A stretch of DNA of 60,600 bases from a virus. Lineage: Duplodnaviria > Caudoviricetes. Position 1 is the stretch's first letter. Each line of letters starts with the position of its first letter. Both the position numbers and the translations under genes were made by a program. The stretch spans positions 1-60,600 of IMG/VR virus record IMGVR_UViG_3300024428_000003; one strand, given 5' to 3'. This document shows positions 31,400 to 47,065 of the stretch, piece after piece. The notes beneath the pieces are model-generated. The model searched no databases. It had not been told where the DNA came from and saw only the letters and a list, made by a program, of their open reading frames with translations.

Positions 31400-31400
31400 A

Positions 31401-32104: not shown

Positions 32105-32105
32105 A

Positions 32106-32396
32106 TTAAAGTTTATTAAGTTTGTTTTCTAAGATTTTTAATTTGTTATGTACTATAGCCGCTTTTTCGTATTGTTCATTCTGTTCATAAGATGACAATA
32201 GCGTCATAAGCCTAGCTATCTCGGCGAGTATTAACTCTTCTTCACTAACTAGTTTCGCGTTACCAAAGCCGTCTTGTTGCAAATTATTTAGGTCTGTAGT
32301 AAACTGCTGATCCCATTCTTTTTGCTTTTCAATTAAGCCATCTAATACTAATTTAGCAACGCGGACTGCTAGTTTTTCTAATTGTTCATCTGTCAT
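32106..32396 (-). CDS. Small protein with C-terminal UVR (UvrB/C)-like coiled coil
   Basis: EQNEQYEKAAIVHNKLKIL matches the E.YE.AA..RD.I pattern. Confidence 0.65.
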   Translation of the reverse strand: MTDEQLEKLAVRVAKLVLDGLIEKQKEWDQQFTTDLNNLQQDGFGNAKLVSEEELILAEIARLMTLLSSYEQNEQYEKAAIVHNKLKILENKLNKL

Positions 32397-32623
32397 TATA
32401 GATCTATTCTCTCTGCTTTGAAGTTTTTAAATATAAACTTGTTTAGGAATTTACCTTTAGATGAAGATTCAAATAAACCACGCCAGTAAAAAATTGGTAC
32501 ATCGTGGTATTTATATATACTATCATTGTTAAAGTACACTAACATAGTGCTTTCGTTGTTGTTGTATTCTGCACTATATATAGCGCTAGAATCAACCATT
32601 ACTGATTCAAGAGTGTTTGTCAT
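32396..32623 (-). CDS. KTSC-domain protein
   Basis: VDSSAIYSAEY...L.V.F....Y.Y.DVP...L..SSSKGKFLN. Confidence 0.85.
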   Translation of the reverse strand: MTNTLESVMVDSSAIYSAEYNNNESTMLVYFNNDSIYKYHDVPIFYWRGLFESSSKGKFLNKFIFKNFKAERIDL

Positions 32624-32638
32624 ATTATTATTGTTTAT

Positions 32639-32674
32639 TATATTATCAATTGTTCTACGTATTACGTTTGCAAA
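32639..32674 (-). promoter_or_regulatory. Early promoter motif, copy 2
   Basis: Same 36-bp consensus. Confidence 0.8.
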
Positions 32675-33280
32675 TTAATGAAATACTAATCCCACTCTGT
32701 TAGTGGAATTGAACCATCTTGTGGCGTAGAGGTCCACAGATGAAGCATCAGTATAGCCAGCAGATACAAGATCGCTATGACTAGAAAATATTTTGGTATG
32801 TCTGTGTTTTCTTTCATTTATTAAATGTTTTTGTTTACCCGAGTCACTAAATATAATGTCATAATTACTTGGCAATGAAGACTTTAGCATCATATCGATC
32901 ATATTGGTATAACTGTAAAACCGTACGTTCGGATTGTGTATAGCAATCTCTATCCACTTCTTTAGATATTTGGGCGAGTAATAATCACCGCTATCGTGGA
33001 CTCTTACATAATCAGGTTTCTTCTTACGTATTTCAGCGTTCATAGCTTCGACAAAGTCGTCAGTCTTTGTTAACTGATAACGCTTTTCAAACGCCGGTTT
33101 TACGTTAGACCAGATGTAGGCTCCTTTCTTGGCATAACAGAATTTAACACAACTGTCAGCCATGGGGCACGTCAGTTTCCCGCTAGCAGATTTGTAGGCA
33201 GGAATACCGAAGTTGAAAACCCGAAGCCCGAGTTCTTTTGATGTCTTTTTTAATTTAGAGTTTTGAGTAAGTAAATTCAT
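32675..33280 (-). CDS. Gp88-like protein (radical-SAM-like Cys cluster)
   Basis: TCPMADSCVKFCYA, RVHDSGDYY, FYSYT. Confidence 0.75.
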   Translation of the reverse strand: MNLLTQNSKLKKTSKELGLRVFNFGIPAYKSASGKLTCPMADSCVKFCYAKKGAYIWSNVKPAFEKRYQLTKTDDFVEAMNAEIRKKKPDYVRVHDSGDYYSPKYLKKWIEIAIHNPNVRFYSYTNMIDMMLKSSLPSNYDIIFSDSGKQKHLINERKHRHTKIFSSHSDLVSAGYTDASSVDLYATRWFNSTNRVGLVFH

Positions 33281-33282
33281 AG

Positions 33283-33555
33283 TTAATCTAGTAATATCAT
33301 ATAAGCTTCAGTGTTGTTCTTGCGAAACCACGTTAACGCTTTATGAAAGTCATTAATCATTTTTTGGTTTACCGTTTTAGGTGCCATTTCAAATACTCTC
33401 TGGCTACCGATAATAAAATCGTATATCGATAGCTCAAGAGCATTCAAGGGATAACTTGCGTTACTAAATGGATTGGTTACTTCCTCACCTTTATCATATA
33501 TCATACCTTTAAACCATTTAGGTATTTTTTGTTCTTTAATCTTCGTCATCGCCAT
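33283..33555 (-). CDS. Hypothetical early protein
   Basis: 90 aa ORF in operon. Confidence 0.65.
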   Translation of the reverse strand: MAMTKIKEQKIPKWFKGMIYDKGEEVTNPFSNASYPLNALELSIYDFIIGSQRVFEMAPKTVNQKMINDFHKALTWFRKNNTEAYMILLD

Positions 33556-33892
33556 CTATTTTGAATAAGTCTTCAATTTCACTGCAAATGTTTTCTTCAA
33601 GATCATCTGTGTAGTTGAATTCTATGTTAGACACCTCTATTCTGTTATCGTAGTTTAATTCAAAGTCAATATCGTAGTTGTCGGCATTATCGAATTGATA
33701 ACCTCGTATGCCTTCACATACGGCCTCACGTATTTGATCTCGTATTTCTACAGATATTACAGGTTTGTTTACATCAGCGAGCTGTACTTTAGCTTCTTGT
33801 AATTGCTTAGCAAGTGCTGTTTGATCGGTTTCAAATTGTGTTAACGCGGCGGTTAACTCTTTTACTTTTAATTCTAATTGTTCTTTAGTCAT
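33536..33892 (-). CDS. Hypothetical early protein (coiled coil plus acidic C-terminus)
   Basis: 118 aa. Confidence 0.65.
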   Translation of the reverse strand: MTKEQLELKVKELTAALTQFETDQTALAKQLQEAKVQLADVNKPVISVEIRDQIREAVCEGIRGYQFDNADNYDIDFELNYDNRIEVSNIEFNYTDDLEENICSEIEDLFKIDGDDED

Positions 33893-33903
33893 TGGTATAT
33901 ATA

Positions 33904-34116
33904 TTAATTATTAGTTTCTATTATTGTAGCGATATGATTCCATACTTCACGCTCACGCAAAGTTGCAGTGTATAGCGAATACATTTGCTCGCGATCAAGA
34001 CCACCATACAATTCATTCTTTATATCGCTTTTTAATTTATCGATATCGAAATCAAGCATAGTGATCTTAGCGAAAGCTTTGTTGCTTGCACGTTCTTGTA
34101 GTTCAGCACTACTCAT
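33904..34116 (-). CDS. Hypothetical early protein
   Basis: 70 aa ORF. Confidence 0.6.
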   Translation of the reverse strand: MSSAELQERASNKAFAKITMLDFDIDKLKSDIKNELYGGLDREQMYSLYTATLREREVWNHIATIIETNN

Positions 34117-34360
34117 TGTTTATAGGTGTTAAAATATTCTCACCGTATTTAAAATCCCAAGCGGAAACTTTATAGAATTCTAGATGGGTGAATGTATATA
34201 GTGAGCTAACGTCACTAATTTTTAATTCACTATAAAATTGTGTGCTTGAAAGTGCATCAACTATAGAGTCAATAGAAGCTTTGTATTTTTCGTTTTCAGA
34301 GGAATGTAATGCCTCTTTGATCTCGGGCTTTAGCCTTTCATAAATGGTTAATCTACTCAT
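34109..34360 (-). CDS. Hypothetical early protein
   Basis: 83 aa, behind promoter copy 3. Confidence 0.6.
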   Translation of the reverse strand: MSRLTIYERLKPEIKEALHSSENEKYKASIDSIVDALSSTQFYSELKISDVSSLYTFTHLEFYKVSAWDFKYGENILTPINNE

Positions 34361-34381
34361 AATTATTTATTTTTAGTTTAT

Positions 34382-34417
34382 TATATTATCGTTACTCTGT
34401 CGTATTTTGTTTGCAAA
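34382..34417 (-). promoter_or_regulatory. Early promoter motif, copy 3
   Basis: Same consensus; overlaps the 3' end of the upstream ORF. Confidence 0.8.
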
Positions 34418-34601
34418 TATCTTGTACGTTCTCTAAGGCTAGCTTGTAACCGAAGTTCATCGCCATTTGCATTAATAGTATATCCATAGATCCCTGATTC
34501 GCTTTAGCAAATGATTCTAGGTATTCTCTGTTTGCTGGTGTAGCGACGATTCCTCGATCCAGCATTTTCATTTCTTGGTCAATATAGTTTTGTATATCCA
34601 T
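34392..34601 (-). CDS. Hypothetical early protein
   Basis: 69 aa ORF. Confidence 0.6.
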   Translation of the reverse strand: MDIQNYIDQEMKMLDRGIVATPANREYLESFAKANQGSMDILLMQMAMNFGYKLALENVQDICKQNTTE

Positions 34602-34602
34602 G

Positions 34603-35169
34603 TTATATAAAGTTATTTAAGTTTACTACTTCATGCTCGTACACATTATTGTTTTTTCCGTGAGCATAAGGTAATCTCCACTTTTCAATTATTTCAGGGT
34701 ACAATAATTTAGTGATCATGCGGAATTCGAAATCATCAGCGTATAGCATTTCACCGTTTTTATAGTCAGTCATTTCAGTGGTAGCCTTGTCTACTACTTC
34801 AAATTTTTGTTTCCAACACTTTAATAATTGAGATTTAGTTAATGACTTAAGACCAGGGTATTGACTAGTGATCATGTGGTAGTCTTCAATTTCTTTAATC
34901 GTATCGGAACAAAACACACTGAAGTTATCTACTCCAAATAGTTTGCCGTATAGTTCTTTAAATCCATCATACTTACAACGCTTACCGTCTACATAAAAAT
35001 CTAACTCAGTGTCGTTAATATCATGGTGATAAACTGCTTCACTAATGTGATCAAACTTACTAACTACACTATATAAGCTAGCTTTCACTGTGAACATTCC
35101 TTTATCTACTTCATAGTAGCCATTGACGTTGAACCCGATCTCTTCACCGGTCTTTTTAATTTTACTCAT
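34603..35169 (-). CDS. Hypothetical early protein
   Basis: 188 aa ORF. Confidence 0.65.
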   Translation of the reverse strand: MSKIKKTGEEIGFNVNGYYEVDKGMFTVKASLYSVVSKFDHISEAVYHHDINDTELDFYVDGKRCKYDGFKELYGKLFGVDNFSVFCSDTIKEIEDYHMITSQYPGLKSLTKSQLLKCWKQKFEVVDKATTEMTDYKNGEMLYADDFEFRMITKLLYPEIIEKWRLPYAHGKNNNVYEHEVVNLNNFI

Positions 35170-35190
35170 ATCTATTTAATTTAAATTTAG

Positions 35191-35269
35191 TGGAAGTGGA
35201 CAGAATCGAACTGTCTTCCGTAGTAATTCCTTTGCAGGCTTTTTACTACGTCAAAACCATATCACCCCC
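35191..35269 (-). ncRNA. Minimal tmRNA-like RNA (tRNA-like domain only)
   Basis: GGGGGTG-ATATGGTTTTGA-CGTAGTAA-loop-TTACTACG-GAA-GACAG-TTCGATT-CTGTC-CACTTCC-A. G3:U acceptor pair, stemless D-loop, P2 helix, T arm. Confidence 0.8.
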
Positions 35270-35274
35270 GTGTG

Positions 35275-35386
35275 CTACAAGCTAGGGTAATAACTATTGA
35301 GTGTTTTTAGATTCCTGAGTTCATAACGATCCCTCACCAGTTCACTTGCATTATCACTCGCATTACTACTCGATACTAACTTGTAG
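35275..35386 (-). ncRNA. Rod-like structured RNA candidate
   Basis: Nested helices on the minus strand: CTACAAGTTAG/CTAGCTTGTAG, GTAGTAAT/GTTATTAC, GAGTG/CACTC. Confidence 0.45.
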
Positions 35387-35391
35387 TTATT

Positions 35392-35493
35392 TGTAACTAG
35401 TGAGGATTCGAACCTCATACCCGTCGGTAGTCATAGTCATTGTAGGCTCGTGAAAACGTTTACCTACTTCAGTACTAAACCTAACCTAGTCGC
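35392..35493 (-). ncRNA. Atypical tRNA-like RNA (T arm plus acceptor-like stem, no canonical D or anticodon arms)
   Basis: TGAGG-TTCGAAT-CCTCA T arm; GACTAG/CTAGTT stem; internal GTAGG/CCTAC hairpin. Confidence 0.55.
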
Positions 35494-35660
35494 CTCTAGC
35501 TATTCACTTATGTATTAAAGAGTTGCGGGCTGTATACGGCCACCTTTAACCTAATTAAGCTACTCGTCTAGTTTGTTATTGAAAGCGTGATCGGCGTCTA
35601 ATACATTTTCGTCATTAGATATACCGGCCGGTCCACCGATGTTTGCTTCCTTATTACATA

Positions 35661-35696
35661 TATATTATCGATCGGTGATCGTAATACGTTTGCAAT
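35661..35696 (-). promoter_or_regulatory. Early promoter motif, copy 4 (upstream of the ncRNA cluster)
   Basis: Same consensus; followed by ~490 nt without an ORF. Confidence 0.8.
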
Positions 35697-35945
35697 TTAA
35701 CCTCTTTCTGTACCCATATAACCAGGTAGTTGTTCTAGAGGGTCTTCATAGTAGCCCTTCTTTATTTCGAACCACATTTTCTCGATTGCACGGAACATTA
35801 CTTCAGAGTGTATAGCATTATACTCGTCGCCATCTGCTTCGAAGTCCGCTAATTGCCAATCGATACTATCATACATTAATTCCATAGTGACGTCCGCTAC
35901 TCCTTCAGCGATCTCGTCTAGTTGTTTCATCTTGCTCATTACCAT
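35697..35945 (-). CDS. Hypothetical acidic early protein
   Basis: 82 aa, D/E rich. Confidence 0.6.
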   Translation of the reverse strand: MVMSKMKQLDEIAEGVADVTMELMYDSIDWQLADFEADGDEYNAIHSEVMFRAIEKMWFEIKKGYYEDPLEQLPGYMGTERG

Positions 35946-36047
35946 TTGGTTTCTTTGGGCATAGGACCCATAAATTCATAAAATGCTTTGTGATACTTTG
36001 TTATCTTAGCTATCACTAAGTGACTAAATTTTCTTACTTTTTTCATA

Positions 36048-36323
36048 TTATTTACAGTTTTCTTCGTTAAAATCTATTAATCTTCTTATTCGATCGGCAT
36101 GATTGGTTATTAAATCTCTCACATAGTTATAACCATATTTACTCTTTGGCTTATACCAGTGCTTTCTTTGCCTATTTATTTGGTACATTAGCGGTTTTTT
36201 ATGGTAATAGTTATCTTGTTTGGTAGATACTCTTACGTAACCACTAGGGTATGTAGCGCCAATTCTTCCATCACTCAATTTAAAATGTAGAGCTCCATCT
36301 TTAGTTACTTTTATTAATTCCAT
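36048..36323 (-). CDS. Hypothetical early protein
   Basis: 91 aa ORF. Confidence 0.6.
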   Translation of the reverse strand: MELIKVTKDGALHFKLSDGRIGATYPSGYVRVSTKQDNYYHKKPLMYQINRQRKHWYKPKSKYGYNYVRDLITNHADRIRRLIDFNEENCK

Positions 36324-36544
36324 ATTGTAGTATTTTTAGTAAAATAATTTATATTAGGGTTTGCTCCTATACTTTTAGCGACATTTTGACGTAATTGCCA
36401 CTCTCGTTTGCGGTATTCCGGATCGGTACACCACTTACGCCACGCTTTTGACGTTGTATTAGGTTTATACTTCTTCTCGAATGCCTCAACTCGCTTTAGT
36501 TTCTCTGCGATCTTGTCGGCTGGGAAATCTTTAAACTCTGACAT
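36314..36544 (-). CDS. Hypothetical early protein
   Basis: 76 aa ORF. Confidence 0.6.
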   Translation of the reverse strand: MSEFKDFPADKIAEKLKRVEAFEKKYKPNTTSKAWRKWCTDPEYRKREWQLRQNVAKSIGANPNINYFTKNTTIWN

Positions 36545-36722
36545 AGGTAAATCCTTTATAGTTAAACCACTCTGTTATACCGTCTTGATCTTTTTCTTCG
36601 TTATAGATGAAGGCGAATGTGTTAGGTAAGTTACCGATCGTGTATGGTCGATAGTTAATGCCGTTAAGTATGGCGTGTATAGCACCGGTCATACTGTCTT
36701 TCTTAAATTTTATTTTGTTCAT
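36531..36722 (-). CDS. Hypothetical early protein
   Basis: 63 aa, behind promoter copy 5. Confidence 0.6.
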   Translation of the reverse strand: MNKIKFKKDSMTGAIHAILNGINYRPYTIGNLPNTFAFIYNEEKDQDGITEWFNYKGFTYVRV

Positions 36723-36745
36723 AGTATTAGTATTTTAGATTCATA

Positions 36746-36781
36746 TATATTATCGATTAGGTATCGTATTTTGTTTGCAAA
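36746..36781 (-). promoter_or_regulatory. Early promoter motif, copy 5
   Basis: Same consensus. Confidence 0.8.
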
Positions 36782-36782
36782 T

Positions 36783-37022
36783 TTAATTACTATGATAGAA
36801 GGTGTGAATACGGTTGGATCGGTTTTGATCACTCCATAGCTTGGTATGAGAATACTTTCTACCTCTACTACCGGCTCCTTTACCTTTCACTTTGAGTCTT
36901 CTATACTCTTTATCCGTTAAACCACTACATAGATCACCTTGTGTTACTTCTACTCTATGCTTCTTAGCTTTAGCTATTCGGGAGGTTTTTACGTACTCAC
37001 ACGCTTCTTTCATTGTCATCAT
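36783..37022 (-). CDS. Hypothetical basic early protein
   Basis: 79 aa ORF. Confidence 0.6.
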   Translation of the reverse strand: MMTMKEACEYVKTSRIAKAKKHRVEVTQGDLCSGLTDKEYRRLKVKGKGAGSRGRKYSHTKLWSDQNRSNRIHTFYHSN

Positions 37023-37032
37023 AGTATTCGTT

Positions 37033-37278
37033 TTAATTATTATTTATAGTTACTTCAACCCAACCTTTTTCACTGTGGCCGGCATATACTTTTAATCCGT
37101 CTTTAGTTAGTATTTCTTCTAACCGTTCCGCTGCTCGCCAAAGACTTGGTTCCGGCATTTCATCGTGCTCGTCGTCGTACATTACTTCGCCTCTACACTG
37201 GTAGAACACATCGTCTACGTCATTCTCTACTAATTCAAAGTCCCAACCGTTTACGGTTATAGTTTCTGTTAATTCCAT
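37033..37278 (-). CDS. Hypothetical acidic early protein
   Basis: 81 aa ORF. Confidence 0.6.
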   Translation of the reverse strand: MELTETITVNGWDFELVENDVDDVFYQCRGEVMYDDEHDEMPEPSLWRAAERLEEILTKDGLKVYAGHSEKGWVEVTINNN

Positions 37279-37604
37279 AATTACTTAAATTTATTTGCTA
37301 CTTCGTATATTTCTTCTTTATCGTCTTGATCCAAATTGTCTGTTTGATTAGCGTACATTCTTAGTACATAGTGTACAAAGGTACAATCACCGTCGGTAAG
37401 TTTTATATTTCTCATATTACTTGTTATTATTTATTAGCCACATTAACTGTGCATACTCTTCGTACTCTTGTTCGTTGGTAAATTCGTATTCTCTCATTGT
37501 ATATAGTATTTAATTAATAATCATCTTCTTCGTCGAACTCTGCCCATTCCAAGCAAGCACCACATAACTCGTCACTTAAGTAACTCGGTTCTGCACCGCA
37601 ACAA

Positions 37605-37823
37605 TTACTCCACATCGGTACTCGCTATTTGAAAGGTTGATGGAAATTGAGACACCATATAGTTGGCTAAACCTAGCCCGTCGTTTGCTTGTTCCGCTAT
37701 GTATTTAGCGATCCGATCTTGCATTTCGAATAAGTCATCTTGGCAATATTGGTCGCACAAGAAAAATCGGTCACCTCCCATTAGTTCGCAGAGTCTAGTG
37801 ATAAATAGTACATTTTTGGTCAT
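37605..37823 (-). CDS. Hypothetical early protein
   Basis: 72 aa, behind promoter copy 6. Confidence 0.6.
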   Translation of the reverse strand: MTKNVLFITRLCELMGGDRFFLCDQYCQDDLFEMQDRIAKYIAEQANDGLGLANYMVSQFPSTFQIASTDVE

Positions 37824-37846
37824 AATAGTTATATTTTTAATTCATA

Positions 37847-37882
37847 TATATTATCGATCTACCTACGTTTTTTGTTTGCAAA
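37847..37882 (-). promoter_or_regulatory. Early promoter motif, copy 6
   Basis: Same consensus. Confidence 0.8.
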
Positions 37883-37963
37883 AAAGTATATACTTTGTTT
37901 ATTGGTAAAATTAGTAGTACAGGTATTACTCTACCTCTCTTAGTACGAAGTAAAATAAAAACT

Positions 37964-38009
37964 GTGACGTTAGGTTGTTAAGTTAAATATAGTAACACGC
38001 TATTGTCGC
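37964..38009. promoter_or_regulatory. Bipartite inverted-repeat site, copy B
   Basis: GTGACGTTAGG-N24-GCTATTGTCGC. Confidence 0.6.
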
Positions 38010-38253
38010 ATTTTTTGATGAGGTTTAGGTACTCTTTTGCTTCACCGATCGATCACTCTTCACCGTGTATAGCACCACGAAACATTCACGTAGGACGGAG
38101 TCTACTCTTCCGGTGTATAGCAAATATACCCAGGCCAAATGTATAGCATTTTGTTATTTACCCATCAAGGTGGTGTCGGGCACTCATTTTCATGAGGTAG
38201 AATTTTATGGTCATTCACCAACCCGAACACCTCATCCCTGAGGGAAAGTAAAC

Positions 38254-38565
38254 CTATTTTTCAAGGTCTACTCTTTCAATTACCGTTTGTCTAACGTTTG
38301 AAGGCATATCGGTACTTTGTGACCAGTAACCTCGTTTGATCCAACATGGCATGATGTTTAGTTTAGGTAACATTACTTTTAATACCTCATCATGATTATA
38401 GGTAATCTTTTGATTTTTGTTGTTGACAAAGGTAATGATTTGATTTCTACCCATCCAACTTTTACGGACTACGAAGTTCTTTCTTTCGATCGGTGGATAG
38501 ATTGCCAACTTTTCTTCGTTTGATAATTTTGAAATTGTTTGTTGTAATAATTCTTGATTTGTCAT
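38254..38565 (-). CDS. Hypothetical early protein
   Basis: 103 aa, behind tandem promoter copies 7 and 8. Confidence 0.65.
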   Translation of the reverse strand: MTNQELLQQTISKLSNEEKLAIYPPIERKNFVVRKSWMGRNQIITFVNNKNQKITYNHDEVLKVMLPKLNIMPCWIKRGYWSQSTDMPSNVRQTVIERVDLEK

Positions 38566-38608
38566 AATTTATTATATTTAATTGTTTATTAAGTTACTTT
38601 GTTACATT

Positions 38609-38644
38609 TATATTATCGAATACTATTCGTACTTCGTTTGCAAA
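38609..38644 (-). promoter_or_regulatory. Early promoter motif, copy 7
   Basis: Same consensus. Confidence 0.8.
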
Positions 38645-38687
38645 TTTGTTTATTTCTATTTAAGTTTAGTATTATTTTGTATTCATA

Positions 38688-38723
38688 TATATTATCGATA
38701 ACTACACGTACTACGTTTGCAAA
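38688..38723 (-). promoter_or_regulatory. Early promoter motif, copy 8
   Basis: Same consensus, tandem with copy 7. Confidence 0.8.
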
Positions 38724-38833
38724 GTGCTATACAGCGTATGCTATACGCTATACGCGGCGTACCGCGGAGTATACTCTTCCGCTCCTATTTCAAAAGCAGG
38801 CCGTAAGCCGGACCAGATGCCAGAGCCAGGATC

Positions 38834-38992
38834 TTAGTCCCGCTCCAGGATCTCGTGCCCGATCACTTTGGATGTGGCTTCATCCCGATAGCACACGCGC
38901 AGATAATTGCTGAGGTGCTGCTCGTTGCTGAACCGAACCACGCGACTGTTATAATTGCCGCGCCAGTTCTTCGTGTCGATACGAACCAGCAT
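38834..38992 (-). CDS. Small early protein (52 aa, not in ORF track)
   Basis: MLVRIDTKNWRGNYNSRVVRFSNEQHL...; ATG overlaps the upstream TGA. Confidence 0.55.
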   Translation of the reverse strand: MLVRIDTKNWRGNYNSRVVRFSNEQHLSNYLRVCYRDEATSKVIGHEILERD

Positions 38993-39144
38993 CAGATCGA
39001 TTCCCAGAACAGATCACGCTGCTCGTTTGTTAGACCTATCAGGTTGTCCTGACCGAACATCTGCTGGCAGATTACAGTTCTGCGCTCAGACTCTTTAATG
39101 TTTCGCATGACTTCATCCCATGCTTGTTGATTTGTTTGATACAT
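38992..39144 (-). CDS. Small early protein (50 aa, not in ORF track)
   Basis: MYQTNQQAWDEVMRNIKESERR...; directly behind promoter copy 9. Confidence 0.6.
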   Translation of the reverse strand: MYQTNQQAWDEVMRNIKESERRTVICQQMFGQDNLIGLTNEQRDLFWESI

Positions 39145-39171
39145 AATTATTAGTTTTATTTGTTATACATT

Positions 39172-39207
39172 TATATTATCGGTGTGTCACCGTGTTATGT
39201 TTGCAAA
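39172..39207 (-). promoter_or_regulatory. Early promoter motif, copy 9
   Basis: Same consensus. Confidence 0.8.
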
Positions 39208-39210
39208 GCT

Positions 39211-39369
39211 CTAGCCGTAGATCCCAAAGGATGTTGGCGCGCCGTGCTCGATCATGTGTGCTACGATTGCGATCAGGCTCAGGCCAATGAATGCTGTTGT
39301 GCCGTAGACCACGATGCCTGTTGCGATGTTGATCAGTCTGTTGTGGTGGAATGTTCTGTTAGTTTTCAT
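39211..39369 (-). CDS. Small membrane protein (52 aa, not in ORF track), first gene of the early arm
   Basis: MKTNRTFHHNRLINIATGIVVYGTTAFIGLSLIAIVAHMIEHGAPTSFGIYG. One TM segment; behind promoter copy 10. Confidence 0.6.
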   Translation of the reverse strand: MKTNRTFHHNRLINIATGIVVYGTTAFIGLSLIAIVAHMIEHGAPTSFGIYG

Positions 39370-39395
39370 ATTGTTATTGTTATTTGTTATTCATA

Positions 39396-39431
39396 TATAT
39401 TATCGGGTGACCAGCGTAGTACGCTTGCAAA
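39396..39431 (-). promoter_or_regulatory. Early promoter motif, copy 10
   Basis: TTTGCAAGC variant of the consensus. Confidence 0.75.
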
Positions 39432-39436
39432 ATTTT

Positions 39437-39620
39437 CAGGACCAGAGTTCAGGACCAGGCTACAGCACAGCCAGGGCCGCGGACCAGGACCAGGATCCTG
39501 CCCAGGAAAAAGGCTAAACCCTGCACGGAATCCGGACAGCCAGGCTCGGACAGCTGCGGACCCAGACCCAGGCAAAGGCCAGACCCCAGGCCAGACCCGG
39601 GAAAAACACAGGGGACCCCC
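39437..39620. repeat. GC-rich CCAG(G/A) repeat tract at the divergence point of the two arms
   Basis: 12 CCAG copies in 39442-39594; T-poor on the + strand. Confidence 0.75.
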
Positions 39621-39726
39621 TAAAAAAAAGTAACTTTCCGCACGGCAAAAAAAAATTGTATAGCATAGCGTAACACAATCGTTCCAAGTATCTAAAAAAA
39701 TTTTTATTATATTTTTTTTCTCGTCT

Positions 39727-39771
39727 ACGACGTTAGCTAGTTATATAGAAATAGTAATAACCTATTGTCAC
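39727..39771. promoter_or_regulatory. Bipartite inverted-repeat site, copy C
   Basis: ACGACGTTAGC-N23-CCTATTGTCAC; close to the reverse complement of copy A. Confidence 0.6.
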
Positions 39772-39813
39772 TATTGGATTAATAATAATAAAAACAGCGT
39801 AATCATAGAGAGT

Positions 39814-40059
39814 ATGAGACAACAGTTATCGCCACAAGCACGAAGAGACAAAGCGGCAAGAGATAAAGCCTATGCGATGTCACCTGCTAGAAAAGCGAAG
39901 AAAGCTCACGCTCAAAGAGAACGTAGGAAGAATCCGTCTGAAGCAGAAGGACAAGACTATGATCACAAAAGACAAAAGTTTGTTTCTGTAAAATCTAACA
40001 GAGGAAACGAGGGGCAAGGTACCCAGAGCGAAAGTGGCGCAAACTATAATACAGACTAA
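39814..40059 (+). CDS. Small basic protein, degenerate HNH-like
   Basis: DYDH...VSVKSNRG pattern after a basic helix. Confidence 0.55.
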   Translation: MRQQLSPQARRDKAARDKAYAMSPARKAKKAHAQRERRKNPSEAEGQDYDHKRQKFVSVKSNRGNEGQGTQSESGANYNTD

Positions 40060-40060
40060 C

Positions 40061-40741
40061 ATGGCAAGAATAAGTACATACGCATTAGACACCAATATAA
40101 AGGGTACAGATAAATTAATAGGTACCGATGTTGAGAATAACAATGTTACAAAGAATTTCTCTGTCAAAGAGTTAACTGATTACATTAGTGAGAACGAGGC
40201 TGCTGATTTAGATTTAGTAGGTATAAAGTTAAGGTGGAACCAAGACCAAACCTACAGTTCTCAAAGAGCCTGGAACAATACTAGTATGGTGGTGGCAGTA
40301 CCACGATTATACATGGAGTTTGAAAATCTAACTTTAGAGCCTGGTGTAACTTACGAGGTTGTTATAGAGAGATTTACTAAGAAAAGAAAAAGAGGAGCGA
40401 GTGCTTCAGGAAACAAATCTTCTGGTATGAAGATAGAAGAGCCAGCAAACACAGCACCTCCTTACGATGTAAGACCTGTTTCTCTGCCTATAAATAATGC
40501 AGCGGGTGATTGGTATGATTTTAAATTTGATTATTACTTTAAACTATCATTTCCATTGCTTTCAGGCTACAGTTCTATAACTAATCATTTTCCTAACAAC
40601 ACGAAATTGCCTATAGGATTTAGAATTAAAAAAACAAAAAAAGGAGTAGTGACATATTCACACACTCTTAGAAAAATAAACTTAACTGGAGGAATCGCTG
40701 ACGATCAAAAAAAGAACGGCATCGCATTCTCTGAATTATAA
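40061..40741 (+). CDS. Putative virion-associated protein immediately upstream of the giant ncRNA
   Basis: ATG 40061. N-terminus MARISTY..D......DKLIGTD....TKNF resembles fibre/appendage attachment modules; internal KKRKR basic patch. Confidence 0.6.
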   Translation: MARISTYALDTNIKGTDKLIGTDVENNNVTKNFSVKELTDYISENEAADLDLVGIKLRWNQDQTYSSQRAWNNTSMVVAVPRLYMEFENLTLEPGVTYEVVIERFTKKRKRGASASGNKSSGMKIEEPANTAPPYDVRPVSLPINNAAGDWYDFKFDYYFKLSFPLLSGYSSITNHFPNNTKLPIGFRIKKTKKGVVTYSHTLRKINLTGGIADDQKKNGIAFSEL

Positions 40742-40751
40742 ATAAAGTACA

Positions 40752-41724
40752 TGGGCGCTATTTTTAGTACTCCCGGTGTTCGTCGGTATTCATATCGCGG
40801 CCGCTGGGTGAACTGCATTCAGCACCCCTGCACGACTCCTTGATATAGTGACACTGAGTCTCTTCTTGCATTTTTTGTGGGGATAGGACCCTGTCCCTGT
40901 GATAGGTTGCACAGTCAGCGACAATAGGTAGTAATTTGCTTCGTAGTGGATTTACGTCGCCAATTTGAAGTTGAAAGTGAAGACGGCGATCCTAGACATC
41001 TATTCTTGTATGGGTCTTCCTTCTTGCACTGTGAGTAAAACCCGCCCTATGCCAAAGGTGCGGTGGATTGAAAGGTGCATAACCTTTCTTAACATAAGGC
41101 ATTAATACGTTAACCTGAGCGGTTGCCCTCTAGACTTTGGAGAGGGGCCTCTGTAACTGTTACGTCCTGATTTTCCCCCTTAGCGGGGGGAACTTCGGGG
41201 CCTCTGACGACTTCATGCCTCTGTCCATAACTTATGGCGACCGAGGGAGTACACCCCGTCTCTAACCTGCGTCCCTTTTTGGCCTTTAACCTAGAATAAC
41301 ATTGTGCCCGGATCGAAGCCTATTCCTGCAGCAGAAGCGGCGCTGAAAGCTTTGCATTAAGTGGACACCAGCTCGATATGGTTGCATTCTAGTAACGGAC
41401 TACCCATAGGAACAGCACCCGGGCATCGTAGTAGTTTCTTTGGCTCCCCTCAAAAGGAGTCACTGGGATGAAAAGGTGCAGCAGTGACCCCTCGGATCTG
41501 GATATGGAGATGCGTCGAGTACGGATGAAACGTAACTGTACTTCAAACGCCGACGATAGCCGGACATGCAACTGACAAGGATTGAGTAGGCTTATGGCTG
41601 AAATTTCTTTTACTTGAGGTAGCGCTTAATCGCTCTACTAGACGGGCTCTGAATACTGCAAAACTTGTATTTTGGGACGACTTTGATCTATTCATTGGTG
41701 CGGGGGTGCTGTAATTAGCGCCCA
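40752..41724 (+). ncRNA. Giant structured non-coding RNA (~970 nt), family unassigned
   Basis: No + strand ORF of 60 aa or more; about 50% GC. 5'/3' pairings 40752-40760 with 41716-41724 and 40820-40833 with 41698-41711. Many hairpins with G:U pairs on the + strand; terminator directly after. Confidence 0.85.
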
Positions 41725-41733
41725 ATTATAACG

Positions 41734-41770
41734 AAACACATGGACTTTAGCGAGTACCATGTGTTTTTGT
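41734..41770 (+). terminator. Intrinsic terminator after the giant ncRNA
   Basis: AAACACATGG...CCATGTGTTT followed by TTGT. Confidence 0.8.
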
Positions 41771-41838
41771 ATTAATATATTAGTAAAATGAGTAATAATA
41801 ACTTTATAAACCAAAATTAACTTACAAAACCTAAACCA

Positions 41839-42129
41839 ATGACAGTTTATTACCAGACTAATTCGTGGAGTAGTCAACCACAACCAACAGAAGATCGATT
41901 AGAATTATGGAACCATATTGCTGATAAAGCTAACTGGCGAATAGTTCAATTACCAAACGGATATTACCAAACGGAATATCAAGATCTTAGAAAAGACGAC
42001 GAGTGGGTTGATATAACAAGAAGAGAAACAATGGAAGCTGCGGAAACTTCTATAGATTCTACTATCGAACACTACAATAAAAAATTAGAATTTATAAAAG
42101 GCCCCAAAGTGGTTAAAACTTTCAAATAA
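41839..42129 (+). CDS. Hypothetical protein
   Basis: 96 aa ORF with an AT-rich leader. Confidence 0.7.
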   Translation: MTVYYQTNSWSSQPQPTEDRLELWNHIADKANWRIVQLPNGYYQTEYQDLRKDDEWVDITRRETMEAAETSIDSTIEHYNKKLEFIKGPKVVKTFK

Positions 42130-42138
42130 AAACAAAAA

Positions 42139-42951
42139 ATGGGATATTTAGTAATAGAGACTCAAGAACAGGGTCAAATAGTAATTGATGGCAGTCGTGT
42201 TCTAAGCATAATAAAAGGCAAAAAGAATAATGACTATTATTTAGACTTAATACTTGGGGTTCAAAAAAATAACCCTAATAAAAATGATATAGTAAGGTTA
42301 GAGTTCTCTGGCGATATAACAGGAGAAACTTTAGAGCAGTACAATGCAGCTTTAATACAATGCGAAGTGGAAGCTTTCGTGAACGTTTTGCCAGCTGAAG
42401 GCGAAGAAGTCTTTGATGTTAAGTTTAATCCTTCAACACCAGCAACTGGTTCTTCAATTAGGGATTCTTTCTCTGGTACCTTTGTAAACTTTGGAGCGGC
42501 AGGAGGATCTGCTGATGTACTTGGAGGTGATACTGTAAATTGGGGTACAGAATTAACTACAGCGTCGGATCATTTAGGTAATTTAACTATAATGGATGAT
42601 TGTAAAATTAAAGCTGTAGCTGTTAAGTGGTCAAGCACCGTTGGTATGACTACTATAAACAATAATGCTACTGTTTCTTTTAGGTTTTCTAAAGCTATAA
42701 ACCCTAATTTGAACGTGACGCAAGCCTCTACTTGGGCAACCGCTGGAGCAATACAAAAACAATGGAGAACCTCTGATGGAGATTACCCTGGGTTTTATGA
42801 AGATGTTAGCAATTTAAACCTAACATACGAAAAAGGGAATTTATTAGCATTTACTGCATCTACATCCACTGGGTTTTCAAATACAGGTGAAGATGTTGAG
42901 GTTACTTTAATATTAGAAGGGGTTGATAGCCCAGTAGTGGTTCAAGCGTAG
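42139..42951 (+). CDS. Putative structural/decoration protein
   Basis: 270 aa; beta-rich C-terminal domain. Confidence 0.55.
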   Translation: MGYLVIETQEQGQIVIDGSRVLSIIKGKKNNDYYLDLILGVQKNNPNKNDIVRLEFSGDITGETLEQYNAALIQCEVEAFVNVLPAEGEEVFDVKFNPSTPATGSSIRDSFSGTFVNFGAAGGSADVLGGDTVNWGTELTTASDHLGNLTIMDDCKIKAVAVKWSSTVGMTTINNNATVSFRFSKAINPNLNVTQASTWATAGAIQKQWRTSDGDYPGFYEDVSNLNLTYEKGNLLAFTASTSTGFSNTGEDVEVTLILEGVDSPVVVQA

Positions 42952-43006
42952 ATAAAAAATAACCCTGCCGGGTAAAAGGCAAATTAAATTTAATTAAATA
43001 AAATAC

Positions 43007-44563
43007 ATGGAAACAAACAATCCAAGCGATATAGTGAAGACACTGACATTCGGTGAACCTGCTAGAAATGAAATAATGCAAGGCGTTGATAAATTAGCAA
43101 GCGCAGTGAGGTCCACTTTAGGAGCCTCGGGAAAATGCGTAATATATGAAGATGCTTTGGGTAGACCGGTAATTACAAAAGATGGTGTAACCGTTGCGGA
43201 AAGCGTAGTCTTATTACATCCGGTTGAAAATATAGGAGCAACCTTAATAAAGGAAGCTGCTAGCAATACAGTAAGAGAGGCTGGTGACGGTACCACGACG
43301 GCTACCGTACTGGCTGATTCTCTGTTAAAAATAGCTAATGAAAGTTTAAATGAAGAAAAAGTTAGAGGTATTAAAGATGGCATTATTAGTTGTGCTAACA
43401 AAGTTAAGATACATCTTGATAAGTCCAGTACTCCAGTTGAAGGTGAAATGTTACGGAGTGTTGCTACAATTAGCTGTAACAACGATGTTGAGCTTGGAAG
43501 AAAAATTGGAGAAGCTTACGAAAAAGTTGGAAGTAATGGAGTCGTATTAATGGAAGAGTCTGAAACGAACGAAACTTACGTGGAATTCGTTGAAGGAGTA
43601 CAATTTGATTCAAAATTAAAATCAATACATTTAGCGACAGACAAAGACAAGAGATCTGCTGTTTTAGATAACCCCTATGTGCTTATTGTTTCCTCTCCTA
43701 TTCCTAATATAAGAAGAATACAAAACGTCTTAGAACACGTTATAAAGAACAAAAGAAGTTTATTAATAGTTTCAGAAGTAGAGCAACAACCTTTAGCTAC
43801 TTTGATATCAAATAAAGTGAAAGGTAATATTAAGGTAAACATTATAGATACACCTGGTTTTGGGCCAACAAGACAAGATACTATAGAAGATTTAGCTATA
43901 TTGACAAATGCTACTATAATAGATGAATCACTTGGAGATGACTTAGATTTAATAGATCCTAATGTATTAGGTGAAGCCGTTAAATCAGTCACTGACGAAA
44001 AAGGCACAGTGCTGCAAGTTGAAACAAATGGAGATATTTTAAATGAAAGAATATCTTTTGTTGAAAATAAGATTGCAGATGAGACTAATCCTTTCTTTAG
44101 AAAAAAGCTAGAACAAAGATTATCTATGCTAACTGGTAAAGTTGGTATTATAAGAGTTGGAGCTGATTCCAAAGTGGAATTAAAAGAAAAGAAAGATAGA
44201 GTTGAGGATGCCATTCATGCGACAAAAGCCGCTTATAAAGAAGGTATTGTTGCTGGTGGAGGTGTAGCTTTACTAAATGCTTCACAGAAAATTAAACCTG
44301 CTAACAGGGGTGAGGAAATATTGCTAGAAGCAATCAAAGCACCTTACTACACCATATTAGACAACGCGGGTATTGTAGAGATCAAAAAGCTTACTATTAA
44401 AAATAGAGGTATTGATGTTAAGACTGGCAAAGAAGTTAATATGATTAAAGCAGGTATTATAGATCCGGTTTTGGTTACAAAATCGGCGCTAAAAAATGCA
44501 GTAAGTGTTGTAACAACAATAATATCTGCAGACTGTGTAATTAGTAATAAAAGATTAGCATAA
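43007..44563 (+). CDS. groEL: Chaperonin GroEL (Cpn60)
   Basis: ITKDGVTVA, AGDGTTTATVLA, GIVAGGGVALL, GIIDP; lacks the GGM tail. Confidence 0.96.
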   Translation: METNNPSDIVKTLTFGEPARNEIMQGVDKLASAVRSTLGASGKCVIYEDALGRPVITKDGVTVAESVVLLHPVENIGATLIKEAASNTVREAGDGTTTATVLADSLLKIANESLNEEKVRGIKDGIISCANKVKIHLDKSSTPVEGEMLRSVATISCNNDVELGRKIGEAYEKVGSNGVVLMEESETNETYVEFVEGVQFDSKLKSIHLATDKDKRSAVLDNPYVLIVSSPIPNIRRIQNVLEHVIKNKRSLLIVSEVEQQPLATLISNKVKGNIKVNIIDTPGFGPTRQDTIEDLAILTNATIIDESLGDDLDLIDPNVLGEAVKSVTDEKGTVLQVETNGDILNERISFVENKIADETNPFFRKKLEQRLSMLTGKVGIIRVGADSKVELKEKKDRVEDAIHATKAAYKEGIVAGGGVALLNASQKIKPANRGEEILLEAIKAPYYTILDNAGIVEIKKLTIKNRGIDVKTGKEVNMIKAGIIDPVLVTKSALKNAVSVVTTIISADCVISNKRLA

Positions 44564-44820
44564 TGAAAGCAATTAATTATTACTTAATAGTAGAAAAAAT
44601 AAAAGAGGCTCCGAAGAAAGTAGGAGGCTTAGAGCTCACTGAAAAACAAAACAAAGATATTAGATACCTAAAAGCTAAAGTAATTAGTGTTGGTGATCAA
44701 GTACCTGTAATAGCTAAAGACGATGTGGTTTGGTATGATAAACACGCAGGACACGGTATAGAGTGGGACGATAAATTTTATTTAGTTTTAAAAGCTCCCG
44801 ATATAGTTCTTATAGAATGA
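44563..44820 (+). CDS. groES: Co-chaperonin GroES-like
   Basis: GGLEL...AKVISVG...DDVVWYDKHAG...DI; coupled to groEL by TAATG. Confidence 0.85.
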   Translation: MKAINYYLIVEKIKEAPKKVGGLELTEKQNKDIRYLKAKVISVGDQVPVIAKDDVVWYDKHAGHGIEWDDKFYLVLKAPDIVLIE

Positions 44821-45257
44821 TATTTACTAGCCAAGATTTAAGAGATATGAATTTGTTTAAGTATTATAGGCTTGTTAGAAGATGGGCTTGTAAAACTTAT
44901 GATCTTAAAGATGCTGATTTAGAGTTGCTGATATATTTAGATTGTAAAAAACTTTTTACTAGGAATGATTTTATTAATGGTACTTATACTTATAGTTGGG
45001 ATAAAAATCGCTGGGAGCGATTAAGAAGAGATGGCTGGATTGATGTTTTTAAAGAACGGAATAGAACAACCTCAAAGTATGCTGCCTATAAAGTATCACT
45101 AAAGTGTAGTCAATTAATAATGCGAATATATAGAATATTATTAGGACAAGAAGATTTACCGGTTTCACGTAATAGTAAATTTTACAAAAACAAAACATAT
45201 ACTGATAAAGTTTATAATAAAGCTATTGATGATATGATAAACGACAGCGAAAGATAA
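44817..45257 (+). CDS. Hypothetical protein, possibly winged-helix
   Basis: 146 aa; DLELLIYL...RLRRDGWI pattern. Confidence 0.55.
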   Translation: MIFTSQDLRDMNLFKYYRLVRRWACKTYDLKDADLELLIYLDCKKLFTRNDFINGTYTYSWDKNRWERLRRDGWIDVFKERNRTTSKYAAYKVSLKCSQLIMRIYRILLGQEDLPVSRNSKFYKNKTYTDKVYNKAIDDMINDSER

Positions 45258-45607
45258 TGGGATTTAGATTAAAAGAATTTTCAGACCTTGTAGGTATAGA
45301 TAAAGAAACATCCTCTTACAACACTCCGGTGTTTAAAAAAGAACTAGAGGGAGGCATACTAGCTGAGGCTAATAATGACGGTACTATATTTATAGACAAA
45401 GCATTAAAAGGCAAGGCTAAGGAGGACGCTATTAAACATGAACAAGTTCATTTAGACCAGATGGCTCAAGGTAAGTTGCAGTATGATAACAATACGGTAA
45501 CATGGAAAAAAGACACCAAATCCCCCGCTAGAGTATACAAAAGAGATCAAATGAACGAAGGGGCAGAAAATCTGCCTTGGGAAAAAGAAGCATACGAAAA
45601 TTCATAA
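45257..45607 (+). CDS. Small zincin-like metallopeptidase
   Basis: GTIFID...AIKHEQVHLDQM (HExxH) ... PWEKEAY (third-ligand Glu). Confidence 0.7.
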   Translation: MGFRLKEFSDLVGIDKETSSYNTPVFKKELEGGILAEANNDGTIFIDKALKGKAKEDAIKHEQVHLDQMAQGKLQYDNNTVTWKKDTKSPARVYKRDQMNEGAENLPWEKEAYENS

Positions 45608-45609
45608 AA

Positions 45610-45975
45610 ATGGGATATAAAGCAAAATCAATAACAAGCAAAGCGTCAAGCGCCTGCAAAATGAATATGGCTCTTATAAAAGGAGAGGCTAAAATTGGAG
45701 CAGTTAAGAAAGCTGGCATAGGTGATTTACAAGCAGAATTTGACGCAGGGAGACAATCAGAAGAATCTTCTCCAGCTGAAATGAGAAGCTCCCCAGCTAA
45801 ATTACCAATTGCAGCTATAGCGAAAGCGGCCCCTATGATATTAGGTGCTTTAGGCGGAGGTAAAAAAGGCGGCGGTGGCGGCGGTGGCACAAAAGTAGTT
45901 GTTAATAACTCAGCTGATGCAAATGCAAGTTCAGAAAGTAATAGCCAAGCAGCAAACGCGATAGACCCTAAATAA
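45610..45975 (+). CDS. Putative internal head protein (SPAK motifs)
   Basis: ATG 45610; low complexity. Confidence 0.55.
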   Translation: MGYKAKSITSKASSACKMNMALIKGEAKIGAVKKAGIGDLQAEFDAGRQSEESSPAEMRSSPAKLPIAAIAKAAPMILGALGGGKKGGGGGGGTKVVVNNSADANASSESNSQAANAIDPK

Positions 45976-45988
45976 TAAAACATAAGAC

Positions 45989-47065
45989 ATGAGCAAACCA
46001 ATAACTAGCAGAGTAAAAAGATCACCTCTTTTTAAATATTCCCCTTTAAAGCAAGACACCCCTGCAACAGCCGGAGGTACTGAAGAGGGTGAAGAATCAA
46101 CTAAAAAAGTAACCACGACTACAGAGGACCCAAACTTATCGGAGTTTAAAAAACGTTGCGGTAAATTCAAAGGTAAAAATTCTAAAGAAGCTAAATTGGC
46201 TGGCTGTGAATGGAAAGAGGGTGTAAAGGATCCAGAGCCTGTAACTACTACTAAAGAGGTTACTGTTAAAGGTGAAGACTTAGATTACGAAGGCACTTTA
46301 CAAACAGCTAAGCAAGGTAGAGTTTTAGAGCCTTGGGAAATAAATCGTTTAAAAAGAGGGACTAGAAAAGCTACAAATGAAAGAGACCAGGCTGCTAGAA
46401 GACTGGATAAAAATAAAGGTGTTACTTTTAAAGACGGTAAATATGTATTAAACGACGATGCAACCGCTAAGGAGAGACGTAAGTTTAATAAGCAAAATGA
46501 TCGATTTATAGATGCTGACAATACAGCAAAAAATCAAACATTAGCAAGAGAGTCTGGTAGACAAGCCGGAGAAGAGTATTACAAAGGGGATAGAGATAGA
46601 GGTTTAGGTGAACAATCAGATCCTGAACAAAAAGCTCAATTCAAAAGAGATGCTATAAAAAAGAAGAAAGCAGAGAAAGCCGCGGCCGCTGCAGCAGCAA
46701 AAGCAGCAAAAGATAAAGCTGAACTCGATGCTGCTAAAAAGGTAGCAGATGAAGAAAACCAGCAGATAGAAGCAGATGCTAACGGCGTAACTACAGGTCA
46801 AGCCGCTAATGCTATAGGCGCAAATGATATAGCCCCTATAAGTTTAGGAGGTGGGTTTGGTTCTGGCTTGGATTTATATAAACAATCTAGTTACGGTCCC
46901 TTAGCCATGACTAAAAAGGGTTATAATATGAAAGCTAAAAGCCCCGCAACTAAAAAACTACAAGGAGCTCAAAATACGTTACCCCCTCATTTACAAGCGG
47001 CTATTAAAGCAGCCCCCGGTAAAATGAGAAGCGCTTTAAAGAAAGGTTACTTTAAAAATAAATAA
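45989..47065 (+). CDS. Putative internal head protein (charged, SPLK motif)
   Basis: 358 aa, K/E/A-rich. Confidence 0.6.
   Translation: MSKPITSRVKRSPLFKYSPLKQDTPATAGGTEEGEESTKKVTTTTEDPNLSEFKKRCGKFKGKNSKEAKLAGCEWKEGVKDPEPVTTTKEVTVKGEDLDYEGTLQTAKQGRVLEPWEINRLKRGTRKATNERDQAARRLDKNKGVTFKDGKYVLNDDATAKERRKFNKQNDRFIDADNTAKNQTLARESGRQAGEEYYKGDRDRGLGEQSDPEQKAQFKRDAIKKKKAEKAAAAAAAKAAKDKAELDAAKKVADEENQQIEADANGVTTGQAANAIGANDIAPISLGGGFGSGLDLYKQSSYGPLAMTKKGYNMKAKSPATKKLQGAQNTLPPHLQAAIKAAPGKMRSALKKGYFKNK

Follow-up and report, generated by a model that had tools for sequence, protein, structure and literature searches.

What is encoded between the stop of a variable phage gene at position 40741 and the next gene at 41839, where the longest stop-to-stop frames (within 40745-41775) reach only 52 aa on the + strand and 78 aa on the - strand? 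The window analysed here is a stretch of 60,600 nt that IMG/VR lists as a complete virus record (60.6 kb; CheckV 100%), with a GC content of about 36%. In addition to the chaperonin genes listed below, it encodes a ribonucleotide reductase, a thymidylate synthase, a primase-helicase, an ERF recombinase, a sigma-factor-like protein, a 1943-aa virion protein with a crAss-type muzzle domain, and a 2948-aa open reading frame (ORF) to which no family is assigned. The nearest cultured phages, among them phages of Flavobacterium, Cellulophaga and Maribacter, share at most about 41% identity in GroEL, and the DNA runs that hold the non-coding stretch are marine or seawater metagenomes; we infer an uncultured, marine phage whose host probably belongs to the Bacteroidota. 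ARAGORN detected zero tRNA genes in the window. The tRNA-like element closest to the stretch is an 82-nt tmRNA-like piece, 5.5 kb off on the opposite strand.

Our analyses lead us to conclude that the + strand of this stretch carries a genuine gene for a non-coding RNA. The original prediction, made from the sequence alone, had described a region that lacks a + strand ORF and has roughly 50% GC in an AT-rich genome, and both descriptions hold: no + strand frame exceeds the 52 aa given above, and GC ranges from 0.44 to 0.53 in 200-nt windows over 40700-41600, compared with about 0.36 for the genome. Translated searches of 13 frames, which might have exposed a decayed gene, yielded no Pfam match and nothing below E 0.4 in PHROG. 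Variants of the stretch are separated by single-base indels. The features discussed below are as follows.

39814-40059, + strand: p81, an ORF for a small basic protein and the likely first gene of the RNA-bearing transcript
40061-40741, + strand: p226, a variable gene for a beta-rich protein, with an in-frame ATG at 40061, directly upstream of the RNA
40747-40760 with 41716-41729, + strand: stalk helix A, 12 pairs in the consensus fold
40765-40815, + strand: 5' hairpin within the stalk, 19 pairs
40820-40833 with 41698-41711, + strand: stalk helix B, 14 pairs
40834-41697, + strand: interior ("cargo") of 864 nt, with no coding frame
41696-41701, + strand: cluster of 3' break points of an abundant RNA species, four independent breaks within six bases
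41741-41770, + strand: intrinsic terminator, a hairpin followed by a T-run, read from the sequence
42139-42951, + strand: p270, a second lineage-specific variable gene, 68-93% nucleotide identity to the relative L002 in 100-nt bins
43007-44563: chaperonin GroEL gene, followed by GroES at 44563-44820

Pairing of the ends and fold of the interior

The ends of the RNA pair with each other across about 900 nt. Both long-range pairings of the original prediction (40752-60 with 41716-24, and 40820-33 with 41698-711) are present in the sequence, in the minimum-free-energy fold and in a two-sequence consensus fold. Folded as a whole, the stretch 40745-41730 reaches -336.5 kcal/mol on the + strand (z -4.25), a value that none of 20 shuffles matched, whereas the - strand scores z -0.12, with nine of 20 shuffles as good; the + orientation, proposed from G:U pairs, is thereby borne out. 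An intrinsic terminator does follow, as had been claimed, at a spacing of 17 nt past the last stalk pair instead of 10 nt. A simple terminator scan is blind to its hairpin, the loop of which exceeds the limit of the scan.

The interior behaves differently. Compared with shuffles, the folding energy of the whole stretch stands out and that of the interior alone (40834-41697) does not, with z -0.95 and five of 20 shuffles as good on the + strand; the thermodynamic signal of the whole therefore comes mostly from the ends. The - strand of the interior has z +2.17, and the + strand is the more stable by 43 kcal/mol. Folding 40772-41701 gives z -0.47. Among 200-nt windows on the + strand, only those at 40700, 41100, 41600 and 41700 clearly beat their shuffles, and from about 41200 to 41400 folding is worse than in shuffled sequence.

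Is the pairing maintained in relatives? A search with GroEL yielded 80 related loci, and the RNA was found by blastn and nhmmer in a single one of them, L002, at 92% identity. One metagenome pattern scan added four further contigs (L083 to L086), all of one lineage: L083 matches L002 without a difference over 756 nt, L085 and L086 are 99.6-100% identical to the window, and L084 is a third variant with 94% identity to both the window and L002. A consensus fold computed with RNAalifold from the alignment of the window and L002 contains 295 predicted pairs; adding the truncated L084 gave a three-sequence consensus with an unusable structure. Ten of the 295 pairs differ on both sides and still pair, 11 have changed compatibly on one side, and none is broken. 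When the 3' partners are slid by 1-3 columns, 0-1 double changes remain and 41-44% of cells are paired, and none of 500 column shuffles matched the observed pairing values; since the structure was fitted to the same two sequences, the share of paired cells is inflated, the count of double changes less so. The covariation anticipated by the original prediction thus exists, in two to three close variants of one phage lineage.

Seven of the ten double changes fall in the stalk: one in helix A (A-U to U-A), three in the 5' hairpin and three in helix B (C-G to G-U once, A-U to G-C twice). The hairpin, which carries in addition one single change and no broken pair relative to L002, is the most divergent part of the RNA, with a 20% difference over alignment columns 1-89. 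Compensatory changes go via G-U states. The two stalk arms differ from those of L002 by 20% and 18%, and the interior by 6.1%, a value inside the range found at fourfold sites of neighbouring genes (0-27%). Because seven double changes preserve pairing despite this 18-20% divergence of the arms, stalk pairing is clearly under selection, and compensatory substitutions have kept the long-range stalk intact. The interior accounts for the remaining three double changes, at 41176:41189, 41220:41240 and 41435:41468. Compensated, strand-specific pairs of the kind that generally mark a structured non-coding RNA are hence found here, with direct support for the stalk and for these three interior pairs; 28 of the 38 helices show no variation and are uninformative.

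The proposed details of the interior fared unevenly. A fold of the window sequence alone has 309 pairs, of which 16 are broken in L002 and 24 in L084, so that much of the interior model is untrustworthy. Among the local helices originally listed, 41070-88, 41126-46, 41173-92 (with one compensatory pair) and 41517-43 (with one G-C to G-U change) are kept in the consensus, and 40880-97 and 41459-88 pair otherwise there than proposed. The helix 41305-11/41419-25 does not survive the changes seen in L002 and L084, and the suggested pseudoknot 41398/41431 loses one pair in L002. Several roles that the interior might play through its sequence were considered and rejected. A sponge of protein-binding sites would require repeated motifs; k-mer counts in the RNA are not above shuffle maxima, and internal repeats are no longer than 15 nt. 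Elsewhere in the genome, no complementarity or match to the RNA exceeds 12 nt, and on this ground we dismiss an antisense regulator of phage genes and, together with the absence of a reverse transcriptase from the genome, the template repeat of a diversity-generating retroelement.

Abundance and ends of the RNA in marine communities

Six metatranscriptome runs from six studies contain 82-89% of the sampled words, and contigs of four of them were compared with 37000-46000. Every one of the four has long contigs across the flanking phage genes that differ by only 0-1 letters, and each run therefore contains the phage. In each of the four, the contig depth over the RNA is 11-170 times that of the flanking phage contigs, where depth is one mean per assembled contig in runs chosen for containing the stretch, a poor measure that cannot rank genes. 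The depth was 778 over the RNA against about 4-18 in the flanks in run X15; 289 against about 0-6 in same-strain flanks in X16; 110, in a single contig spanning 39833-41611, against about 6-10 downstream in X18; and about 15,900-16,700 against 91 upstream and about 70-180 downstream in X20. Parts of the window that lack RNA cover were not counted as evidence. DNA carry-over cannot account for a step of 10- to 170-fold from one contig to the next in a single genome. Subject to the caveats on depth, the RNA portion is much more abundant in natural marine communities than the phage messages on either side of it.

Where does the abundant species end? The X15 contig stops at 41696, and the X16 contig at 41701, followed by adapter-like letters that we take to be sequencing adapter. 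Contig L085 tracks the window to 41698, after which its next 793 nt lead into the C-terminal portion of an unrelated ORF, presumably a T4-type major capsid protein foreign to this phage, and L084 tracks the window to 41701 before 42 unrelated letters. The DNA assemblies, of the window and of L002, continue past 41701. These breaks, which coincide with the inner margin of helix B (41698), are most readily accounted for by an actual RNA end at 41696-41701. With a 3' end at about 41700, the mature molecule would lack helix B, the helix with the strongest support, which suggests that the stalk is a processing stem. In X20, depth beyond 41700 may continue. A discrete transcript of about 1 kb, which the original prediction had named as a check, would be consistent with the contig depth in four of four RNA runs and with the clustering of the 3' breaks, with the proviso that contigs do not strictly fix ends or levels.

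The 5' side is less sharply defined. The X15 and X16 contigs begin at 40353 and 40336, and depth in X20 climbs near 40770, at a strain-variable site where the step may be an assembly break. Other contigs start near p81, at 39833 in X18, 39841 in X20 and 39825 in L084; with starts at 39825-39841 in three data sets, a transcript reaching from p81 through p226 and the RNA appears likely. No sigma-70-like or otherwise promoter-like site was found directly before the RNA.

Could the stretch be something other than an RNA gene, such as a decayed protein gene or an element acting at the DNA level, for instance an origin or a packaging site? It is an orphan sequence that lacks distant homologues and a strong interior fold signal, as might be expected of either. 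Set against this are the absence of a frame longer than 78 aa and of any family match, strand-specific pairing with many G-U pairs and an interior more stable on the + strand by the margin given above, compensation through G-U states, and the very high RNA depth. We consider that the stretch is almost certainly not of this kind.

Distribution and genomic neighbourhood

The RNA sits among genes that vary between relatives. Homologues of p81 (46-100% identity) occur in many related loci, with or without the RNA. Full-length homologues of p226 share 53-85% identity, and only its N-terminal 44 or so aa are common to many other loci. Nine of these homologues (P0005-P0013) fall at 53-65%, and one contig among those that encode them, 58,447 nt long, also has a p270 homologue with 90% identity. 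Its structural model is all-beta (pLDDT 66), with no PDB match at E <=0.001 and no Pfam or PHROG family. The gene p270 is missing between p96, the gene downstream of the RNA, and GroEL in most relatives; Foldseek matches its model (pLDDT 64) best with a carbohydrate-binding module (E 2.6e-4) and with coat proteins of the jelly-roll type, and its C-terminal part is jelly-roll or carbohydrate-binding-like in this low-confidence model. With low confidence, then, the models of p226 and p270 resemble receptor-binding proteins, adhesins or decoration proteins, not RNA enzymes. Either protein as a partner of the RNA was rejected on the basis of these beta-rich, adhesin- or receptor-binding-like models (pLDDT 64-66). 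Relative to L002, the backbone of the genome is 96-100% identical, the C-terminus of p226 80-92%, the RNA 85-100% and p270 68-93%; the p226 C-terminus, the RNA and p270 form a hypervariable block, the part most divergent from L002.

Searches for further copies returned little. In 46 of the 47 loci that hold p96 and an upstream ORF, the gap before p96 measures 25-102 nt, and only in L002 does it reach 1098 nt. Among 49 related virus records, eight of them at least 90% complete, only chance matches of 14-30 nt to the RNA were seen; GC-rich islands in other loci, considered as counterparts, proved to be coding and were rejected. The RNA had no match in a phage collection. Four patterns derived from the RNA, scanned against viral contigs, recovered only the contig of L002 and, for the terminator pattern, that of L104, described below. 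When 185,579 species genomes were scanned with a pattern, eight chance matches emerged, of which nhmmer confirmed none, and 401 Bacteroidota genomes held one 28-nt match and no source of the RNA. Since 46 of 47 relatives with the same neighbour gene lack the RNA, it is not a conserved part of a morphogenesis module. The original prediction of expression together with the morphogenesis genes therefore stands as regards expression and fails as regards the module; the RNA belongs, as an accessory element, to a hypervariable block of host-range-like genes.

The viral contig L104 carries a different element in the same frame. A p226 homologue (57% identity) is followed by the same 5' flank and a short closing helix, and the terminator is nearly identical to that at 41741-41770, with two changes. 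Between flank and terminator lie only about 250 nt (z -4.0), which show no homology to the interior of the RNA described here (local alignment score 19, compared with 19.5 +/- 2.5 for shuffles) and no match in Rfam. A pattern built from this element led to four further contigs, whose similarity to it is limited to 18-45 nt. L104, too, has no p270 between p96 and GroEL.

Sharp borders within a conserved frame, a foreign-looking GC content and a fixed 3' break would also suit a mobile or self-processing RNA, be it a group I or group II intron, an insertion bearing a ribozyme, or the RNA of a retroelement. For such an element one would look for an interrupted gene, and the stretch interrupts none, lying after the p226 stop and ahead of the terminator. 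No intron or ribozyme model matches and the genome has no reverse transcriptase; the joints listed for the four RNA runs include none that skips the stretch, and a second copy is absent from all collections searched. We regard this origin as exceedingly unlikely.

A passive role deserves more weight, while still being rather unlikely in our estimation. The stretch could be a 3' untranslated region, long and structured, that belongs to the p81-p226 message and is seen either as a nuclease-resistant remnant of decay or as a stabilising tail, with no function of its own. Probable co-transcription with p81 and p226, the lack of a promoter-like motif directly upstream, an interior that folds no better than shuffles and whose sequence shows no clear constraint, and the 46 of 47 relatives that manage without the RNA are all in keeping with this account. 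However, the terminator hairpin alone would be enough to protect a 3' end, and carrying some 900 additional bases at 50% GC is expensive for a 60-kb phage. Nor would a passive tail readily account for seven compensatory changes that keep the stalk despite about 20% divergence, or for an abundant species that apparently ends inside the stalk and not at the terminator.

Known RNA families and a proposed role

Does the RNA belong to a known family? With Rfam 15 at gathering scores, cmscan of the whole window gave no match in the RNA region. At E <=10 with lax filters, the 1301 bases of 40600-41900 returned only three chance-level rows (E 1-8), and no model for GOLLD, ROOL, OLE, HEARO, 6S, introns, RNase P, tmRNA or rRNA matched there. 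The original prediction had seen no hallmarks of group II introns, RNase P or rRNA, in agreement with these searches. It had also offered two identities, a divergent member of GOLLD or ROOL and a new class of giant phage RNA. The former finds no support, in view of the absence of a model match even at E <=10 and of a tRNA gene from the window; the latter is the best reading, qualified by occurrence in three sequence variants of a single lineage, by an interior fold that does not exceed shuffles, and by the accessory status of the RNA. A search of the literature found no description of this RNA.

GOLLD forms a 14-mer cage and ROOL, at a length of about 580 nt, an octameric one, both made of RNA only. 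Like ROOL, the RNA described here is large, phage-borne and has no known protein partner; unlike ROOL, it matches no model, is about 350 nt longer, is not associated with a tRNA island, and comes from a marine phage, probably of the Bacteroidota type. GOLLD and ROOL are described as RNAs of phages and prophages often found near tRNA islands, and GOLLD, with a length above 800 nt and a 3' region conserved in all members, occurs in marine samples and is strongly expressed during infection, with its role unknown (PMC12286853). The present RNA shares with GOLLD that it is phage-encoded, longer than 800 nt, marine and strongly expressed (PMC12286853). It differs in having neither an Rfam match nor adjacent tRNA genes nor a detectable conserved 3' core, and in its restriction to one lineage; proximity to tRNA genes, being frequent and not universal, is no strict requirement for GOLLD.

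A very divergent member of either family that forms an RNA-only cage would account for a phage-encoded, highly expressed marine RNA of about 1 kb whose role is unknown, all of them general traits of GOLLD and ROOL (PMC12286853). It would have to do so with no match to either Rfam model at E <=10 under lax filters over 1301 bases, no tRNA gene in the window, no detectable counterpart of the conserved GOLLD 3' region, and a weak interior fold signal. Such membership seems to us very unlikely.

The stalk also resembles known processing stems. Precursors of rRNA and early messages of phage T7 are cut by RNase III within stems. As in those stems, flanking complements here pair over about 900 nt, it is the pairing and not the sequence that is kept, and the abundant RNA ends where the stem has its inner edge; cleavage by RNase III or a similar enzyme would fit these observations. 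Unlike in rRNA precursors, the cargo is not rRNA. Stable non-coding RNAs of phages are known in the rnaC and rnaD of T4 and in the packaging RNA of phi29, which oligomerises on the portal. These RNAs are phage-encoded, as is the one described here, and measure 120-175 nt as opposed to about 900 nt. A core role in packaging, as in phi29, is argued against by the lack of conservation of the RNA among relatives.

Based on these findings, we propose the following model, to which we assign a probability of roughly 0.55: a + strand RNA gene, expressed within a transcript of about 2 kb, would be processed at its stalk into a stable, trans-acting accessory RNA. The RNA would form the 3' part of this transcript, which may start at about 39.82 kb, shortly before p81 or in its first few bases, proceed through p81 and p226, and end at the terminator at 41741-41770. 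The stalk, composed of helix A, the 5' hairpin and helix B, joins the ends of the RNA and would serve as a site of double-strand-specific processing, in a similar fashion to rRNA precursor stems. Cleavage there would free a stable interior of about 870-930 nt with a 3' end at about 41698-41701. In what is the weakest step of the model, we speculate that the freed RNA acts in trans in the interaction of phage and host, as a scaffold or decoy for a host or phage protein. A place at the core of virion assembly is disfavoured because nearly all relatives lack the RNA, because it lies in the fastest-evolving, receptor-binding-like block, and because L104 has a different element in its stead.

What is the relevance of an RNA of this kind? 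It is real, highly expressed, lineage-restricted and large, and it is a candidate for a new class distinct from GOLLD and ROOL. To our knowledge, only a handful of bacterial or phage RNAs longer than 500 nt have been described, with GOLLD and ROOL recently found to form RNA-only cages. The RNA described here would be another large one from a phage, unrelated to these two in sequence; it is very abundant in marine RNA samples and its phage can be traced in public metagenomes, so that it offers a second and independent way to ask what purpose giant phage RNAs serve. Its position in a fast-evolving host-range block, and its exchange for another structured element in L104, hint at a part in the arms race between phage and host and not in assembly. 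The stalk with its apparent cleavage provides a simple, testable model of processing. More tentatively, and with the odds against it, the locus may be a modular slot for interchangeable large structured RNAs, in which a conserved frame of 5' flank, closing and processing stalk and terminator, downstream of a receptor-binding-like gene, would hold a cargo of about 900 nt here and an unrelated one of about 250 nt in L104. If this were true, the cargo would be the most abundant transcript of the phage in natural infections. It would then found a new class of giant phage RNA, excised from the stalk and acting either as an assembly made of RNA only or as a decoy directed against a host system.

A repeated minus-strand motif and a second GC-rich stretch

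The promoter-like motif TTGCAAA-N(14-26)-GATAATATA occurs in nine exact copies within positions 30705-39206 of the window, all on the minus strand and each preceding a minus-strand ORF (chance expectation, 0.01), and a variant, tenth copy is found near 39388-39425. They probably represent the family of promoters used by the leftward (early/middle) arm. Another GC-rich stretch of the window, with GC up to 0.61, spans 38700-39650; it includes small ORFs and, at 39430-39620, an unusual tract rich in GGACCAGG that shows a strong A-over-T skew.

29945-30700: gene for a phage-encoded, sigma-factor-like protein
38834-39144, minus strand: small ORF in the GC-rich stretch, between motif copies
39211-39369, minus strand: small ORF in the GC-rich stretch, between motif copies

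A tmRNA-like element

35188-35269, minus strand: tmRNA-like element, 82 nt (tmRNA model, 57.3 bits, E 7e-20)

This element consists of the tRNA-like domain only, comprising an acceptor stem with G3:U70, a T-arm, and a 3' ACUA, with the message-like part (~300 nt) replaced by twelve bases; ARAGORN made no call at these positions. A second T-arm-like motif was observed on the minus strand at ~35402-35416, ~135 nt upstream, and both reside within one 520-nt ORF-free stretch.

Giant ORFs

10187-19033, plus strand: giant ORF, 2948 aa
236-6067, plus strand: giant ORF, 1943 aa

The 2948-aa ORF matched no Pfam or PHROG family whatever; the 1943-aa ORF contains an Ig-like domain and a crAss-type muzzle C-terminal domain.

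Related contigs and the surroundings of the large RNA

L104:1257-1540: structured element, ~250 nt (z -4.0)

In L104, a related IMG/VR contig also designated L105, this element occupies the same frame as the large non-coding RNA of the window, between a homologue of the upstream gene p226 and the same terminator. It is unrelated to the large RNA and has no match in Rfam; a ~13-nt motif occurs in it twice, and 45 nt are common to two further viral contigs, L107 and L110.

In the metagenome contig L085, the large RNA is joined at window position 41698 to the 3' portion of another ORF (contig positions 1654-2446), apparently a T4-type major capsid gene from a different phage. This contig appears to be a chimera formed from two transcripts of very high abundance.

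Downstream, p270 (42139-42951, plus strand), whose predicted fold may be jelly-roll or carbohydrate-binding-like, is a lineage-restricted insertion between the genes for p96 and GroEL. In one contig from an RNA run, 42129 and 43076 are linked through 185 letters of other sequence, which demonstrates that a strain without p270 co-occurs.
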